Part shown: positions 1-18,423 of the stretch, in pieces
How the letters are laid out: each line of letters starts with the position of its first letter
How positions within the stretch are numbered: the first letter of the stretch is position 1
Assembly: GCA_951406725.2 (NCBI GenBank)
Contig: OX597827.1
Location: 84,010,001 to 84,074,000 of the forward strand
DNA: 64,000 nucleotides
Source of the DNA: Octopus vulgaris
Taxonomy: Eukaryota
Direction of reading: 5' to 3'
Program-made: the position numbers and the translations under genes
The notes under the pieces: generated by a model
Database searches by the model: none
Seen by the model: the letters and a program-made list of their open reading frames with translations, nothing else
Told to the model about the DNA's origin: nothing

Positions 1-42
1 AGGACTAGAACTGTTTCATTCAAGAGAAATCATCAGGAAGCT
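1..42 (-). ncRNA. Type I hammerhead ribozyme motif, truncated by the window edge
   Basis: The reverse complement reads agcttc-CTGATGA-tttctcttgaat-GAAA-cag-ttctagtc-ct, identical to 3343-3384. Confidence 0.65.
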
Positions 43-392
43 AGTTAACAAGAATTGTATTGGCATTTATACATTTAGGCAGGTTTAAAGGGGTGGTGGT
101 GGGGGACTTTTTGGGGGTAGGCATAGCGCAAAAATATCATACTTGGGGGAGTGGTCAAGGAGTCAGTGGTAAAATAGATAAAAGAATAAATAAAAGAATA
201 AATAAAATAAAAAAATAAAAAAATATATAGAAAAATATATAGAAGAATAGAGTTTTAGGTAAATAAGGAGATTCTCACTTATACATATACACATATGTAT
301 ATATATACACACACACGCACACATATACATACACACATACATACACACACACACACATATATATATACATATATGTATATATACACATATAT

Positions 393-431
<39 letters not shown>

Positions 432-586
432 CATATGCACACATATATACACACACATGTATATATACACACACGCCCACACATACATATACACACAAAA
501 AAATATATACATACACACACATACACATACACACATACACACACATATATCTACATACACACATGCACACACAAGTCCATATATAC

Positions 587-634
<48 letters not shown>

Positions 635-980
635 GTGTACCTATACATACCTACACATACACACATATACATACAAATACAAACCCATTCCCTAATTTTA
701 ATTTTATTATTATCTTCATTTATTACTTTTGTTATCTTTGACCGCGGGTCACAAGCATCTTGGCTACGACAGCAAGTCCATTTATCTTTCTACTCGAACA
801 CAAGCACTCACTCACGCACGCTCACTCATTAGCACGCACACTCACTCATTCGTACACTCATACACATACACGCACGCACGCGTTATATTCATACATACAT
901 ACATCTACATACATTCACATATATACACATACGTACGCGTACCTACAGATTCATGTCTACACGCTTAGAAGACTAGTCCA
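1..980 (-). mobile_element. Non-coding, microsatellite-filled interspersed element carrying a hammerhead ribozyme (copy A; cut by the window start, may extend to ~2900)
   Basis: Unique blocks 1-~200 and ~683-980 align colinearly with 7334-~7530 and ~7859-8150. In both copies they are separated by (TA)/(CA) tracts. No real ORF. Confidence 0.7.
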
Positions 981-1031
981 TACATATACACCAATAAATA
1001 TATACACACATACATATACACCTACATACAA

Positions 1032-1068
<37 letters not shown>

Positions 1069-1202
1069 CGTATATATACATACATATACATACACCCATA
1101 CATACATACATATATACACATACACACACCCACACATATACATATACATACATATACGCGCATACATACACATACATATACATACATATACTCATACACA
1201 TA

Positions 1203-1262
<60 letters not shown>

Positions 1263-1630
1263 CACACATACATACATGTACATACATACATATACATATA
1301 TACACACACATACATACACATATACATACACACACATACACATATACATGCGTACCCATATACACACACACACACGCGCATCCGTATATACACATAAGTA
1401 CACACATGCGTAAAAGTATACATATATCTATACATATGCTTACACATACACACACACGCGTCTCCTTATGTTCATATACTTACATGCATACTCAAAAAAT
1501 AAATAATAAAATATATATACGTGCAGTTATTCATATACATACATGCATACTCAAAAAATAAATAATAAATATTAAGTATATATTTACGTGCAGTTACCTA
1601 TTATACAGACGGATACATGCATATAAACTT

Positions 1631-1677
<47 letters not shown>

Positions 1678-1765
1678 CATACATATACATATACACACAT
1701 ACACACACACACATATATATATATATACTATATACACACACACATACATATACATACACACATAT

Positions 1766-1809
<44 letters not shown>

Positions 1810-1875
1810 GTGTGCATACATACATACATACTCATACACACACACACACTTACACATACATATATACACACACTT

Positions 1876-1920
<45 letters not shown>

Positions 1921-2092
1921 CACACATACACATACACACATATATCTACATATATACATACACATACACACACATACTCACACACACACATATATATACA
2001 TACATACACACACACATACATATATTATATACATATATATATATATACACATGTGTGTATACATACATACATACTCATACACACACACACAT

Positions 2093-2152
<60 letters not shown>

Positions 2153-2366
2153 GTATATACACATAAGTACATACATGCATAAATGTATACATATTTCTAT
2201 AGAGGTGCATACACATACATACGCTCACGCGCCACCTTATATACATAAATACATACATGCATACCAACGCATACTCAAGTAATAAATAATAAGTAATAAG
2301 TAATAAATAATAAGTATATATACATGCAGTTACCCTTTATACAGACGGGAACATTCATATAAACAT

Positions 2367-2430
<64 letters not shown>

Positions 2431-2556
2431 ACACACATATATACACATACACATATATATATATATATATTCATATACATATATACACCTATCTACATAT
2501 ATGCACACATACACACACACATGCATATACGTATAACTCTACATACCTACACATAC

Positions 2557-2641
<85 letters not shown>

Positions 2642-2763
2642 TATATACCCATCTACAATCTGTATATACACACACATACATGCACATACACATAACTCTA
2701 CATACCTACATATACATCGACATACTCGCGTACACTTATATATATATATATATACATATCCAC

Positions 2764-2796
<33 letters not shown>

Positions 2797-2844
2797 AATA
2801 CACACACACATATATACATATATATACACACACACACATACACG

Positions 2845-2902
<58 letters not shown>
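280..2902. repeat. Compound (TA)n/(CA)n/(TACA)n microsatellite field with internal duplications
   Basis: Seen directly. Short unique islands recur, e.g. gcatactcaa..aataaataataa..gcagtta at ~1486, ~1545 and ~2269, and cgtatatacacataagtac at ~1383 and ~2152. Confidence 0.95.
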
Positions 2903-2905
<3 letters not shown>

Positions 2906-3173
2906 AATTGAGGGTAAAGTTAATTAGTTATTAATCAATTTCACCAAGTATTCAGTATGTAAAAGGACCATTATTTTTGAGTAAACATTGTCTGAGAGAA
3001 ATTTTCTTTAAGTAGTGGAAATGGCTAAAAAACTTTTTTGGCTGCTATTTCTAGAAAGTTCAGTATGTGGCAAAGTAATTTATTTTACTAAGCCCTAATT
3101 ATATAATATTTTATATATACATACATATATATACACACATACATATACATATACATATGCATCCACACATATA

Positions 3174-3234
<61 letters not shown>

Positions 3235-3342
3235 TTACATACATACACACGCACACACACATAATACATGCGTATATTCCTACTATACCCATACATTTCT
3301 ATACATATATACATATACATGCCAATACAATTCTTGTTAACT

Positions 3343-3393
3343 AGCTTCCTGATGATTTCTCTTGAATGAAACAGTTCTAGTCCTGTAGAAGCT
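3343..3393 (+). ncRNA. Type I hammerhead ribozyme motif
   Basis: Stem I agcttc/gaagct (6 bp); core CTGATGA at 3349-3355; stem II ttc-tctt-gaa; GAAA at 3368-3371; stem III acag/ctgt; GUA cleavage triplet at 3385-3387. Confidence 0.8.
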
Positions 3394-3429
3394 CCTTCTA
3401 TATAATAAATATATATATATATATATATA

Positions 3430-4886
3430 TAACTTAAATATGTTTCAACCAAAGATTGGTCCAAGCCATATCTAACTTCGTAGCCCCACCTGATAGGATT
3501 ATCTAAATCCTTTTTAAGTCAAGTTTCGTGGTGTCGTGGTCCATTCGAGTAGGGAGTTCTTGTTGAGTGAACTGTATCTAGGTAAAGTTTCCGTTTAAAG
3601 GTGATGGGATCCTTTTCCTCTTTGATTTGTTTCGGGACAATGTTAAATAGGGCAGGGCCGATTGAGGAAAAGAAATTGTGTTACAGTGTATTTATGTGTT
3701 GTAATCTTGAATTGTGTAGGGGACGTATGGCCCGTGGTCCTAACCTTGGATGAATTTTCAAGCTAATGTTGAGGTTGTTTGGGCAATGCTGGTCGTATAT
3801 TCTCCACATCGTGTAAATGATGTATCACTCGCGGTGGCGCCGGAAAGAATAGAGTTTCAATGCTTTAAGGCGGTTCCAATAATCGAAATCAGTCATGCCC
3901 TTAATTCTTTTTGCGAACGATCTCTGGGATGATTCAATTTTCGAGATGTTTTGTTTTGTATGAGGAGACCACAGGGGGCAGCAGCATTCGAGGTATGGCC
4001 GTGCAAAGTAGGAGAAAAGAGGAATGATGACACCTTGTTCTCTGGACCGGAAGGATCTTAGGATCCAGGAGCTCATCTTACGAGCTATATCGACCTTAGT
4101 GTTGATGTGGGCACTCCAGCTAAGATTGTTATCAACAATTACTCCTAGGTCTCTGATATTATTACAGGCTGTGAGTGGTTCCCCTGAAGGAAGAGAGTAT
4201 GGTTGTTTTAGCATAGTCTTTCTTCCAAAATGCATCAGCTCAAATTTTCCCTCGTTTAAGTTGCATTTTGTTTCTGTCTGCCCATTGACTCACAGCATAT
4301 AGATCAGACTGGAGTTCAGTTCGGTCTTCTTCAGCGAATATTTTCACTTTGCTGTGTTTTATGACGCTAGAAAAGTCGTTTATATAGACTATAATGAGGA
4401 GCGGGCCCAAGACAGTCCGCCGAGGGGAACCACTGGTGACTTTTACCGGGCTTCAGTGGATTCCACCGATCACAAGATTTTGTGTTCTGTTCTCCAGGAA
4501 ATACTCAATCCGGTGTTGAAGTTCTCCACGGATTCCAACATTTGACAATTTTGACAGTAGGATATTATGGTCAACATTGTCGAACGCTTTACTGAAGTCA
4601 AGATATATGACATCAGAGCTCGAACTTGATCCCAAGGTTTTAAGGATATCATCGATGTGGTATAAGAGCTGTCCTATTCTTATTTGCAGATGAATGAAAC
4701 GCTTTTTGGTTCAGTTTGATTTTTTTTTATTACCCTGTTCCTCTGCAGCTCTTTGATTTTTCAATGCTGGTTTTCATGTTTTCCAACTCCAGCCTTTTCA
4801 TTGTTGTTGAATGTGGATGTTGCATGTGGGAGTATTTTGATTGATTGATTGATTTTTTTATTAAGTCTTTTGATGCGTCTGATGAG

Positions 4887-4960
<74 letters not shown>

Positions 4961-5563
4961 GGAGCCTGTTTCTGTTTGTGTAAATGGATTTCGTAGGAGC
5001 GTGTTTTGATCATGTATAGGTGACAATGTCCTCAAAGTGCTGCCATGTGGTTTCAGTGTCAGTGGAACTGAGAATGAAGGACCAGTCGATAAAGGACAGA
5101 TCCTTTCTGATTGATCCCCAATCCGCTTTGTGGAAGTTTATGTTGTCAAATAAGTGCAGTGGAGTTGGACTGGATGGTTTTGTTTTGATATGCCGGAAAT
5201 TAAACTTGCAGAGTATCATGTTATAATCCGAGAGGAGAGTTTTTCAACTGAAATACTATGAATGGAACTCGTGGTTTGTTAATATCAGATCTAAGATCGT
5301 TTTATTCTGTCTTGTTGGTTCGACCAGTAGCCGTGTCAGAGAAAAATTCATCCATTAGATTAAAGAGTAATTCTGCTGCTGCTTTGTCAGGTGTAGTGCA
5401 TTTGCCCCACTTCAGACTATATGTGAGCCAGTTTATTTAAGGGAAGTTAAGATTACCCGTCACCAGCATGTTTCCGGAGTTGTATTTCTGAAGGAAGGAG
5501 TTGATTTTGTTGCGGCATTTGTAGTGGATCTTGCAGGCATGGCGTGGATTCGATCCTCGATAG
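3430..5563 (-). mobile_element. Degenerate CR1-group LINE ORF2 (APE C-terminal part plus RT), 5'-truncated and internally deleted
   Basis: Minus-strand fragments LVTGNLNFP*INW (APE), NFHKADW, DVIYLDFSKAFDNVDH, TVLGPL, IFAEED (YADD position), RDLGVIVD and RPYLECCCPLWSPH. Many stops and frameshifts; ends at (TA)n. Confidence 0.85.
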
Positions 5564-6467
5564 CCAAATTTAAATTAACAGTCCAACGGCACTTTTCTCA
5601 CGGTAAAACTATAGTTTTTCTGTGAGTGACGGCAGTTACATTTACCAGATATCTTTGCTGGTCCGGAATAATGTCTTGGCCACTTGACTCTTCTGACCTC
5701 TTCTATTTCTAGAATAGAGATATCACAGACCTTCAACGAAATCTACTGCTCTCAACAATATGTCCATCTTTCTGGCTAATTGTGGATAGTTATAAAAACA
5801 AGAAGACAGGCAGGCGGTGGACCGGCTCCAGCAAAATGCTGTCTTGACTGAGGTAACTTCACAGAGTGACAACTATGGAATTAACCAGCGTAGAATCTGC
5901 TTCGTCCCACATTCTCTTGCTTTCATTAGCTCAATTTCTCTTCTCTGCAACATTATCATATCTCTCGCTAATACTACTATGAAATTGTGTACACCCATAT
6001 ACAGGCCGGAATTAACTTTCTTTACTTTGCATGCTTTACGAACTGTGTCATATACTATTACACTAGCCTAGCCGTCGTGGTATGGCATATATCAAAGAAA
6101 CGGCAAATAAGTATCTCTTTACAACTTCATTCACTGTTCTTCCTTCATCTTACATAATGGCAATCAACTAACAACAAACCATTACAATTTGATGACCCTC
6201 GACTTCAACGAAGAACCAACCGTAACAAACTGGTGACATCTCCGATGTTCCATCCTATTGCTTATCAATTATTGTTTGCCAATTAATTTCTGCCGTTACA
6301 CATTCTTCAAAGCACTTTAGAGATGCTTGGGGAGGCCTGTAGAGAGCAACAATGATTATGTCGCGTTGGCCTTGTTGAATAGGGATTTGGGTTCACAGTA
6401 GCCATAGGAAAATATGTCCTTGGCATCAGCTGAAAAGGAGTCATGGAGAAAGACGGTTGTTCCTCCT

Positions 6468-6514
<47 letters not shown>

Positions 6515-6982
6515 ATGGACTCTCCCGTCATTAGACGACGTATGAGGGTCTGGCAATTTCTTGCCGAACAACCACACAGATGATTTGTTTGTGTACGCAT
6601 AAACTCCCTCCCTCCATCAAATCGACATTACCTGTACAGATGTACTATGTGCCACATGTCAGATGATGAAATTATTGCTTCATAGCTACTAGAATATTAT
6701 CTGAGAGAAATTTTCTTAAAGTAGTAAATGGCTAAAAAAAATTTTTTGGCTGCTATTTCTAGAAAGTTCAGTATGTGGCAAAGTAATTTATTTTACTAAG
6801 CCCTAATTATATAATATAATATTTTGAATTCGCCTTAAATGGTCCTTTTACATACTGAACACTACTTGGTGAAATTGATTAATAACTAATTAATTTTTAC
6901 CCTCAATTGTTGATATTTGTTTTGTTTGTTTTTGTTTTTCCAGTTTCAGCTCTTGAGCTGTGGCCATGCTGGGGCACCGCCA

Positions 6983-7145
6983 TTGTGGTGAAAGAGTACA
7001 GCAGGGATCACCACCCCCTGCCGGAGCCTCGTAGAGCTTTTAGGTGTTTTCGCTCAATAAACACACACAACGCCCGGTCTGAGAATCGAAACCGCGATCC
7101 TGCGACCGCGAGTCCGCTGCCCTAACCACTAGGCCATTGCGCCTC

Positions 7146-7146
<1 letters not shown>
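6983..7146 (-). mobile_element. tRNA-derived SINE (partial), same family as 47390-47745
   Basis: Minus strand gaggcgcaatggcctagtggttaggg (A-box-like) ... ggtttcgattc (B-box-like). The body aligns to 47392-47527. Confidence 0.75.
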
Positions 7147-7238
<92 letters not shown>

Positions 7239-7241
<3 letters not shown>

Positions 7242-8146
7242 GGTCCCGGGTTGATTCGGGGTTAACCACAGTAAGTAAGGTACTCAATACATAGCAGAGT
7301 AAAATTAATTTATTATATAGAAGGAGCTTCTACAGGACTAGTACTGTTTCATTCAAGAGAAATCTTCAGGAAGCTATTTAACAAGAATTGTATTAGCATT
7401 TATACATTTAGGCAGGGGTTTAAAGGAGTGGTGGTGGGGGACTTTTTGGGGGTAGGCATAGCGCAAAAATCATACTTGGGGGAGTGGTCAAGGAGTCAGT
7501 GGTAAGTTAGATGAAAGAATAGATAAATAAAAAAATAAAATAAAAAAATAAAAAAATAAAAAAATAAAAAATATATATTCATACGCACATACACTCATGC
7601 ACACACAACACACCTAGTTCCCTATATACACATATTTACACCTATATATACATACACCCACATACACTTATGCACACATATATATATATATAAACATATA
7701 CACGCATACATATATATACATGTGTGCACATACATACATACACACATATATACATACACATACACATACACATGTGTACCTATACATACCTACACATACA
7801 CACATACATACATACAAATATACGTATACATATATATATATATACAATCCAATACAGGCCCATTCCCTAATTTTAATTTTATTATCTTCATTTATTACTT
7901 TTGTTATCTTTGATCGAGCTAAGAATCCTGGCAATGGCTGCATGTCCATTTGTCTGTCTACTAGAAGGCAAGTACTCATTCCCGCACGCACACTCATTAG
8001 CGCGTACATTCACCCATTCGTACACTCATACACATACACGTACGCACGCGTTATATTCATACATACAAGCATCTACATACGTTCACGTATATACACATAC
8101 GTACTCGTACCTACAGATTCGTGTCTACACTTTAGGAGGCTGGTCT

Positions 8147-8150
<4 letters not shown>
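7239..8150 (-). mobile_element. Non-coding, microsatellite-filled hammerhead-bearing element (copy B)
   Basis: Colinear homology with 1-980; flanked on both sides by (TA)n; hammerhead about 85 nt from its left end. Confidence 0.7.
7325..7375 (-). ncRNA. Type I hammerhead ribozyme motif
   Basis: Minus strand agcttc-CTGAAGA-tttctcttgaat-GAAA-cag-tactagtc-ctg-TA-gaagct. It differs from the 3343 copy only at core position 7 and in loop III. Confidence 0.8.
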
Positions 8151-8202
<52 letters not shown>

Positions 8203-8321
8203 ATCTTGCAGGCATGGCGTGGATTCGATCCTCGATAGAAATACTTTGGAATTCATATTTACAAATATATATATATATATATAGATAGATAGATATAATG
8301 TGTGTGTGTGTGTAGGGGGGT

Positions 8322-8635: not shown

Positions 8636-9020
8636 CTCCTTCATATATGTGTGTGTGTGTTTCATAGCTGCTAGAATTTAAAACATGTAAACGAGTTATC
8701 CTGATGAGCACGAAATATCATCCGAAACTAGTAGTACGAGTGTCGCACAGTGTTTAATATAACCTTTAAAATTTACATACCTACCCACACACTCACACCT
8801 CTCTCTTTATCTCTATTATGCACTCTCTATACCTCTTTACTCTCTTTACATCTCCACTCTCTGCAAGAGCGCTTACTTCTTTCCATCTTTCCTCTCTAGT
8901 TTCTAATATTTTTTCCTTTCCATTTCCATCTACTTTTCACTCTCCGTTCGTCTGGCTATTGGATGACTTCTCAGAATTTTTCTGTCTTGCACCGTACCAC
9001 ACTTCTAATCTGTCTGTCTT

Positions 9021-16676: not shown

Positions 16677-16679
<3 letters not shown>

Positions 16680-16710
<31 letters not shown>

Positions 16711-16746
16711 TGTATGTATGTATGTATGTATGTGTATATTTATATT

Positions 16747-16779
<33 letters not shown>

Positions 16780-16860
16780 GTATGTGTATATTTATATATA
16801 TATGTATGTATGTGTATATTTATATATATATATGTATGTATGTATGTATGTGTATATTTA

Positions 16861-16895
<35 letters not shown>

Positions 16896-16904
16896 GTATA
16901 TTTA

Positions 16905-16940
<36 letters not shown>

Positions 16941-16952
16941 TGTGTATATTTA

Positions 16953-16985
<33 letters not shown>

Positions 16986-16994
16986 ATATTTATA

Positions 16995-17025
<31 letters not shown>

Positions 17026-17034
17026 GTATATTTA

Positions 17035-17065
<31 letters not shown>

Positions 17066-17074
17066 GTATATTTA

Positions 17075-17105
<31 letters not shown>

Positions 17106-17112
17106 GTATATT

Positions 17113-17146
<34 letters not shown>

Positions 17147-17162
17147 TGTATGTGTATATTTA

Positions 17163-17193
<31 letters not shown>

Positions 17194-17204
17194 GTATATT
17201 TATA

Positions 17205-17235
<31 letters not shown>

Positions 17236-17522
17236 GTATATTTATATATATATGTATGTATGTATGTAGGTATGTATGTGTATATTTATATATATATGTA
17301 TATATGTATGTATGTATGTATGTGTATATTTATATATATATGTATATATATTATATATGTATGTATGTATGTGTATATTTATATATATATATATGTATGT
17401 ATGTATGTATGTATATATGTGTATATTTATATATATATGTATGTATGTATGTGTATATTTATATATATATGTATGTATGTATGTGTATATTTATATATAT
17501 ATGTATGTATGTATGTGTATAT

Positions 17523-17559
<37 letters not shown>

Positions 17560-17571
17560 TATATATATATG

Positions 17572-17603
<32 letters not shown>

Positions 17604-17798
17604 TATGTATGTATGTATATGTATGTATGTATGTATGTATATATATATATATGTATGTATATATATATATGTATGTATGTATGTATATATATAAAATGTA
17701 TGTATGTATATATATGTATGTATGTATGTATGTATATATATGTATGTATGTATGTATATATATGTATGTATGTATATATATGTACGTATATATGCATG

Positions 17799-17829
<31 letters not shown>

Positions 17830-17830
17830 G

Positions 17831-17866
<36 letters not shown>

Positions 17867-17875
17867 TGTATATAT
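16680..17875. repeat. (TATG)n/(TA)n compound satellite with a higher-order unit
   Basis: The anchor tgtgtatatttatatatat recurs about 20 times between ~16731 and ~17530. Confidence 0.95.
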
Positions 17876-17932
17876 TGTTGATTCGCTAGCCTCTACACGC
17901 ATTTTTTTCTCTCCTTGTTTCTTCTCTGTGTA

Positions 17933-17970
17933 TCTTTCTGTTGAAGAGTGTAGGCTCGAAACGTAAAAGA
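17933..17970 (+). ncRNA. Minimal type I hammerhead-like motif of Penelope pLTR type, with one core substitution
   Basis: tcttt-CTGTTGA-a-gag(tgtagg)ctc-GAAA-cg-TA-aaaga. Stem I is 5 bp, stem III is the palindrome ACGT, and core A6 is changed to T. Confidence 0.55.
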
Positions 17971-18096
17971 CTTGTTTTATTTATATTCCTGAGCGCCATA
18001 CTAATACAATTGTTTGTTTGTATTCCACCTGCCTTCGTCTTTTGTTTATGTTCATAAAGCTTCCCGTTATATATATGTATGTATATATATGTATGT

Positions 18097-18145
<49 letters not shown>

Positions 18146-18423
18146 GGTATATATATATATATGTATGTATGTATGTAAATATATATGTATGTATATATAT
18201 GTGTATGTATGTATATATATGTGTATGTATGTATATATATGTGTATGTATGTATATATATGTATGTATGTATATATATATATGTATGTATGTATGTATAT
18301 ATATGTATGTATGTATGTATATATATATATATATATGTATACATATATATATGTGTGTGTATATATACATATATGCATGCACAGGTAGATTTGTAAACAT
18401 GCTGTTATATAGGTGAAAATATA

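Follow-up and report, generated by a model that had tools for sequence, protein, structure and literature searches.

The window analysed here, 64,000 nt of the Octopus vulgaris genome (contig OX597827.1; G000:C14:84010001-84074000), begins with two related, protein-free sequences, copies A and B, which are filled with microsatellite tracts and carry a hammerhead ribozyme near one end. The original prediction took them for a non-autonomous, ribozyme-processed element, that is, a retrozyme or a satellite of a Penelope-like element (PLE). Our analysis indicates, with a probability of about 0.8, that both are 5'-truncated insertions of an autonomous PLE of the Hydra clade with a microsatellite-like 3-kb untranslated region (UTR), and that they were likely twin-primed. 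The same UTR, including its tracts, lies elsewhere in this genome downstream of open reading frames (ORFs) encoding a reverse transcriptase (RT) and a GIY-YIG endonuclease (EN). Searches with the unique blocks of the copies, proposed as a check for such linkage, led to 13 measured ORF copies; the distance from stop codon to ribozyme is 2.9–3.4 kb in 12 of these, and the 13th is interrupted by an inserted stub. The companion check for tandem and inverted pseudo-long terminal repeats (pLTRs) was likewise answered, with two-armed insertions and a tandem locus whose unit of 5,193 nt comprises a 2,141-nt ORF and 3,052 nt of non-coding DNA.

Much of the original description of the two copies was borne out. 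Copies A and B contain unique blocks in the same order (89% identity over 897 aligned columns) with expandable tracts between them, and no real ORF was found in either, the frames of at least 70 aa being repeat-derived or short and featureless. Positions 3320-3384 are the exact reverse complement of 1-65 (0 mismatches, within a full exact run of 66 nt), and copy B differs from that stretch at exactly 4 of 65 positions. The copy B hammerhead lies at 7375-7325 on the minus strand, with 85 nt from the end of stem I to the 3' end of the copy and then (TA)45, as had been described. The extent of copy A, placed originally at 1-980 or beyond, had to be revised. The reading of 1-3410 as a single insertion with a Penelope-style inverted arm holds, with other bounds: because neighbouring DNA extends copy A past the window start, the insertion runs from -94 to 3410 with (TA)n on both sides, negative positions being bases before the window, and consists of a long arm (-94 to 3313) and an inverted arm (3314-3410). 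The 3' end of copy A, at the second of two end sites described below (site 2), is at -94 (G000:C14:84009906), followed by (TA)n. Its truncated 5' end begins about 130 nt after the position of the ORF stop. Over its full length, copy A is collinear with and 95–97.6% identical to the ORF-linked copies L073, L074, L167, L175 and L177. Copy B has an internal deletion of about 420 nt relative to L033, and its identity to L067 and L072, both with an intact ORF, is 98.5%.

The single ORF encodes an RT with a C-terminal GIY-YIG endonuclease, in which YRDD and LVY..YIG motifs are present. Intact 713-aa frames occur at L067 and at G000:C4:75.25 Mb. The motifs of the 713-aa ORF are SDKT (DKT in place of DKG), RIRWR, a CNC-X5-C linker and CDLC..E..N..CMH; the marks given for the Hydra clade are DKT, RW(K/R), CxCX5C and CxxC..E..N..CxH (PMC8557442). 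At least 1,080 homologues were found at E<=1e-20, the best being 37–53% identical. A Pfam search of the ORF gave no match above the cut-off, and some homologues carry PF01541. In the predicted structure (mean pLDDT 83), the best fold matches are telomerase RTs. The insertion structure of endonuclease-containing PLEs is also present, with 5' truncation, partial tandem pLTRs, an inverted copy and a one-sided tail. By every motif and structural test run on its sequence, the element is a member of the Hydra clade, the placement being based on motifs and insertion structure. Its unit of 5.19 kb exceeds the <3 kb that is typical, although not diagnostic, of this clade. Contigs of four runs presumed to be RNA cover the ORF start and the pLTR; such contigs cannot show ends, strand or level. 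Close to loci of the element, PLE-like RT or GIY-YIG frames of other clades were observed at L046:7048-8472 and L048:8776-9971.

Between subfamilies, pN/pS is 0.03–0.09 in the RT and 0.04–0.13 in the linker plus EN, and because values of 0.03–0.13 hold for both domains, the lineage has been kept by its own protein. The frame of the linker is variable at a run of C. Out of 147 exact linker matches, 116 lack one base of this run, 4 lack two and 27 keep the frame; the one-base-short state, found in about 80% of copies (e.g. L063 and L059), separates the RT frame from the EN frame. Full-length tandem copies are among those out of frame, and the genome also holds a second Hydra family, with at least 61 open ORFs and 63 scored ORF matches (L183-L192, e.g. 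G000:C27:15433926-15436052). These facts favour the idea that the second family or a small number of intact copies acted in trans on frameshifted sources to make most recent copies of the same element. This is improbable in our judgement. On a tree of 54 copies, in-frame and out-of-frame copies are interspersed, with 13 changes of which at least 6 are forced (15–22 of 500 shuffles gave values as low); 12 of 66 rows had been dropped from this tree for short coverage, and in-frame copies are over-sampled in it. The two arms of the L059 insertion even differ in their C-run state. In addition, the EN is under purifying selection even in lineages that are mostly out of frame, the second family is just 44% identical and has different end sequences, and slippage or base-calling at the longest C run of the ORF is a simpler explanation. 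The short run may thus be due to slippage, to base-calling or to programmed frameshifting.

Twin priming is suggested by the ends of the insertions. The 3' ends of 60 ribozyme blocks fall into two groups about 70 nt apart, 29 of them 20–27 nt past the predicted cut (site 1) and 28 of them 91–96 nt past it (site 2). The other three blocks continue into the ORF, and none of the 60 ends at the cut site. All 57 ends adjoin (TA)4 or more, with a median of 15 units. A few TA letters of the target recur at both sites, a likeness that is weak at site 2 of the second Hydra family. In that family, too, the ends fall at these two sites, spaced by about 70 nt, and its tail has, just after site 1, a small UACUC/GAGUA hairpin in common with the tail of the present family. 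Among two-armed insertions with resolved ends, site 1 is paired with site 2 in 65 of 66 cases (32/33 in a first sample and 33/33 in a second); L151 and L174, with unclear ends, and L253 and L275 are left out of this count. In six of ten long pairs, each arm of an insertion clearly resembles its partner more than any control arm.

The inverted arm could alternatively have arisen by fold-back, that is, self-priming of one cDNA or the use of an antisense template, in place of priming on both strands. Self-priming has been proposed (PMC3846280), and the junctions are near-symmetric in L147, L148, L156 and L164, while the arms of stubs meet in a palindromic AGCT. Either arm may be the longer one, however, the site-1 arm being longer in L152, L162, L163, L167 and L175, and in L158 there is no overlap between the two arms. 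These two findings rule out fold-back from a single fixed priming site, and we consider fold-back of any kind very improbable. When 24 junctions were inspected by eye, several lay in TA or palindromic stretches and several in unique sequence; these junctions speak neither for nor against a role of alternating purine-pyrimidine (RY) tracts in arm joining.

The ribozyme is of type I and lies on the minus strand in copies A and B and on the plus strand in the inverted arm. In copy B, it comprises a 6-bp stem I, CUGA[A/U]GAU, a 3-bp stem II, UGAAA, a stem III with an 8-nt loop, and GUA. An Rfam search returned no hammerhead match, only low-complexity microRNA look-alikes, and folding z-scores for ribozyme and tail were not significant. 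Motifs as small as these usually escape both methods. The core and all three stems are present, and common variants among 116 motifs, which were picked for likeness and imperfectly de-duplicated, occur only at N7, loop 2 and loop 3; catalysis is predicted. Loop 3 contains the palindrome CUAG or ACUAGU, which fits the proposal that PLE hammerheads act as dimers (PMC4209133). In nearly all variants, TATAAAT stands 29 nt before the first base of stem I, and this spacing is constant across subfamily variants. The starts of 59 stub arms were compared with the 5' edge of stem I: 18 are exactly at the edge and 34 within 5 nt of it, with 20 downstream and 5 upstream. An older subfamily (L249, L265 and L269) was also observed, with the same ribozyme, tail and TATA spacing and other upstream sequence. 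Stubs retain the whole ribozyme in uncleaved form. Since no ends lie at the cut site (57 of 60 are 20–27 or 91–96 nt past it) and stubs hold the entire ribozyme, the earlier description of the element as ribozyme-processed is unsupported.

The 3' block of copy B has 1,294 candidate matches in the genome, 40 of which were scored and are 99–100% identical. In G000, 8,165 exact matches were counted for a 26-mer from the ribozyme end, compared with 0 for a reversed control; the element is therefore neither a chance likeness nor a local duplication of blocks confined to this locus, as one alternative had it. A sample in genome order (the first 59 matches of the 26-mer plus L165, one duplicated pair being counted once) gave 42 insertions, of which 31 are stubs of <300 bp and 11 are longer, with two reaching the ORF. 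Scaling from this sample, we estimate about 5,800 insertions in total, about 1,500 of them long and about three quarters of the total being stubs of about 200 bp. A further sample was chosen by a 177-nt upstream block and comprises 27 subfamily B insertions, copy B left out, and 18 of subfamily A, namely 17 of 40 matches plus copy A. The ORF is reached in 7/27 and 4/18 of these respectively. Samples chosen by block are biased towards long, young copies, for which the genome-order sample corrects. The truncation points of long copies are scattered along the entire unit, some inside the ORF. A separate non-autonomous, ribozyme-processed retrozyme or PLE satellite, which the 40 of 42 genome-order insertions that do not reach the ORF and the proposed derivation of retrozymes from PLE pLTRs (bioRxiv 2026.07.22.740005) would suit, is hardly credible against the finding of no ORF-less tandem units each with a hammerhead in 86 mapped regions, the scatter of long-copy 5' ends, the 95–98.5% match of A and B to ORF-linked copies, the lack of ends at the cut and the variation of stub centres between copies. 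Because the UTR with its tracts follows an ORF, truncation points are spread and both protein domains are under purifying selection, the designation non-autonomous is wrong. It had been allowed that the blocks might be the UTR of an autonomous element whose copies lack microsatellites; they are the UTR of an autonomous PLE, but its autonomous copies do contain microsatellites.

The following scheme of twin priming starts from what is directly seen in the genome, namely the anatomy (ORF, UTR, hammerhead and tail), the (TA)n target, the two end sites with their pairing and the arm likeness within one insertion. Transcription would begin at the 5' edge of the hammerhead, 29 nt behind the TATA box, and the RNA would carry sites 1 and 2, the ORF and the UTR before running into the next pLTR. 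The GIY-YIG domain would nick both strands of a (TA)n tract, and one target 3' end would prime at site 2 and the other at site 1 on a single uncleaved RNA. Priming in the first pLTR would reach the RNA 5' end after 70–140 nt and yield stubs of about 200 bp. Priming in the downstream pLTR would lead to copying of the UTR, usually with an early stop, and hence to ORF-less copies such as A and B. The two cDNAs would then be joined head to head by microhomology or repair, and (TA)n tracts within the UTR would provide new landing sites. This proposal would extend, by analogy, in vitro work on another PLE, in which two internal priming sites were used, both strands were extended and the ribozyme was dispensable (PMC11167929).

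Several points weigh against the autonomous, twin-primed reading. The RNA 5' ends and the enzyme activity of the scheme, like ribozyme cleavage, are predictions from genomic DNA, and the Drosophila Penelope promoter has been reported as TATA-less (PMC2377424). Because the C run is mostly out of frame, many of the source copies may have depended on help supplied in trans. L169 has two site-2 ends and is the one exception to the pairing, and the inverted arm of L253 and L275 begins internally. In the other four of the ten long pairs (L143, L147, L150 and L164), the likeness between the two arms does not exceed, or hardly exceeds, that to the best control. The terminal 150 nt do not discriminate between own and control arms, and 3/13 stubs have a one-base difference between arms. 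Inverted arms could also have been homogenised after insertion.

The non-coding DNA of the element is rich in simple repeats. Alternating RY tracts of at least 12 nt make up 56% of the 3,052 non-coding nucleotides of the tandem unit and 57–63% of the stop-to-ribozyme DNA in 12 measured ORF copies. Among near-identical subfamily B copies, the length of seven anchored internal tracts is variable (e.g. 22–70, 60–108 and 171–273 nt), which indicates that these unstable tracts are passed on as part of the element. The UTR of the second Hydra family is about 1.05 kb with only 9–11% in such tracts, and the repeat load is thus special to the present family. A two-armed stub of about 200 bp at L063:3520-3715 sits inside (TA)n of the element's own UTR, so that, on this single case, the cargo can become a target. 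A rough calculation for long copies (1,500 x 3 kb x 0.55) gives about 2.5 Mb of cargo. Background RY tracts account for 6.5% of the window when the element is excluded and for 8.5% in a 120-kb set of other loci, corresponding to about 180–240 Mb in the genome if these values are typical. The share of the element is therefore about 1%, older unrecognisable copies not being counted. The original suggestion that microsatellites are spread as cargo is correct in that the tracts move with the element, although likely only about 1% of such DNA is concerned. No published account of a microsatellite-filled PLE UTR was found, and Repbase, Dfam or an O. vulgaris library may already hold the family; 30 recently active Penelope families are listed among O. 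vulgaris repeats (PMC13282606). A more far-reaching view, which we hold to be speculative and rather doubtful, is that the element is active and that its 3-kb UTR provides it with further (TA)n targets at each long insertion in a self-amplifying loop, with a TATA promoter, an RNA that opens with the hammerhead fold, strict twin priming and perhaps a programmed RT/EN frameshift.

Table 1. Features of the element in the window (strand: +, plus; -, minus;., not stranded)
Feature	Positions	Strand	Remark
Copy A long arm, nearly full 3' UTR/pLTR, subfamily A	1..3313	-	Collinear with ORF-linked copies
Copy A hammerhead, 5' part, CUGAUGA variant; cut site just outside window	1..42	-	
TATAAAT, 29 nt before hammerhead stem I, putative pLTR promoter	65..71	-	
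Inverted short arm of insertion A; ends at site 1, no tail	3314..3410	+	
Complete type I hammerhead in inverted arm; predicted cut after 3387	3343..3393	+	Layout of the Hydra hammerhead table
(TA)n target, right flank of insertion A	3411..3431	.	
Internal fragment of same UTR, small inversion, no ends, not (TA)n-flanked	6693..6916	.	
(TA)45 target at copy B 3' end	7149..7238	.	
Copy B, single-armed, 5'-truncated, subfamily B, ends at site 2	7239..8146	-	
Copy B tail, about 70 nt between sites 1 and 2; two small predicted hairpins	7239..7307	-	z -1.5, weak
Type I hammerhead of copy B, CUGAAGA variant; predicted cut after 7331	7325..7375	-	
TATAAAT of copy B, 29 nt before stem I, putative promoter	7398..7404	-	
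(TA)27 at copy B 5' junction	8146..8200	.	

Other sequences were noted in the window beside the element (Table 1). Directly after the (TA)27 of copy B, positions 8200-8238 are an exact 39-nt duplicate of 5525-5563, 2.7 kb away and close to an old long interspersed element (LINE) remnant; this duplicate may be a templated patch from integration. A decayed LINE reverse transcriptase, unrelated to the PLE, occupies several frames of the minus strand at 3825-4710. A second hammerhead-like core of different sequence (CUGAUGA...GAAAC) at 8701-8750 is probably the end of another PLE family. Positions 16677-18374 are a long (TATG)n-rich tract without any unique block of this element.

These results remove a false 'new non-autonomous class' and explain the protein-free look of such copies. 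A young, high-copy PLE records its mechanism in two fixed sites, each used by one strand, in a probable start of the RNA and in a ribozyme left uncleaved. Exact predictions are thereby gained for how PLE inversions and tails form, which should be of use to transposon specialists. A retroelement is also found to carry mature microsatellite tracts, its own target included, in an amount too small to explain the microsatellite load of the genome.

Other retroelements known to deliver simple repeats are mini-me and SVA. In the birth of microsatellites from L1 and Alu, a retroelement likewise brings simple repeats to new sites (PMC3812793), whereas here kilobases of mature dinucleotide tracts are internal cargo that includes the element's own target repeat. 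Animal non-LTR retrozymes share with the present element a type I hammerhead, kinship to PLE pLTRs and, for the copies in the window, the lack of an ORF (bioRxiv 10.64898/2026.07.22.740005); they are described there as ORF-less tandem hammerhead units, whereas the only tandem unit found here contains an ORF.

Closer parallels are found among PLEs. PAc, a Poseidon PLE of Anolis, likewise has two internal RT start sites that bound a tail, with both strands extended, an AT-rich target and a hammerhead that is not required for insertion (PMC11167929). The PAc start sites are within the ORF and are reported as non-homologous to the target, whereas those proposed here precede the ATG by 41 and 114 nt and have a few TA letters in common with their target. 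The strict one-of-each pairing of sites seen here is not stated for PAc in the available text of that report. The Hydra clade, including Hydra-1_Obim, has the same single RT and GIY-YIG ORF and motif set, a canonical type I hammerhead about 100 nt from the end, a (TA)n target, 5' truncation, partial tandems, an inverted truncated copy and a one-sided tail (PMC8557442). On comparison by eye, the protein belongs to a different family from Hydra-1_Obim (2,507 bp). The terminal hammerhead, inverted arm, tail and (TA)n target are thus already in print (PMC8557442; PMC3846280). The tail of the present element is about 70 nt, compared with 30–40 nt in the Hydra clade. The available listing of the clade gives 27 families, 26 of them marked (TA)n, all of 1.08–3.05 kb (PMC8557442), in contrast to the present unit of 5.2 kb, of which about 3 kb is non-coding DNA rich in RY tracts. 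Relative to these 27 listed families, the microsatellite-laden UTR is new.

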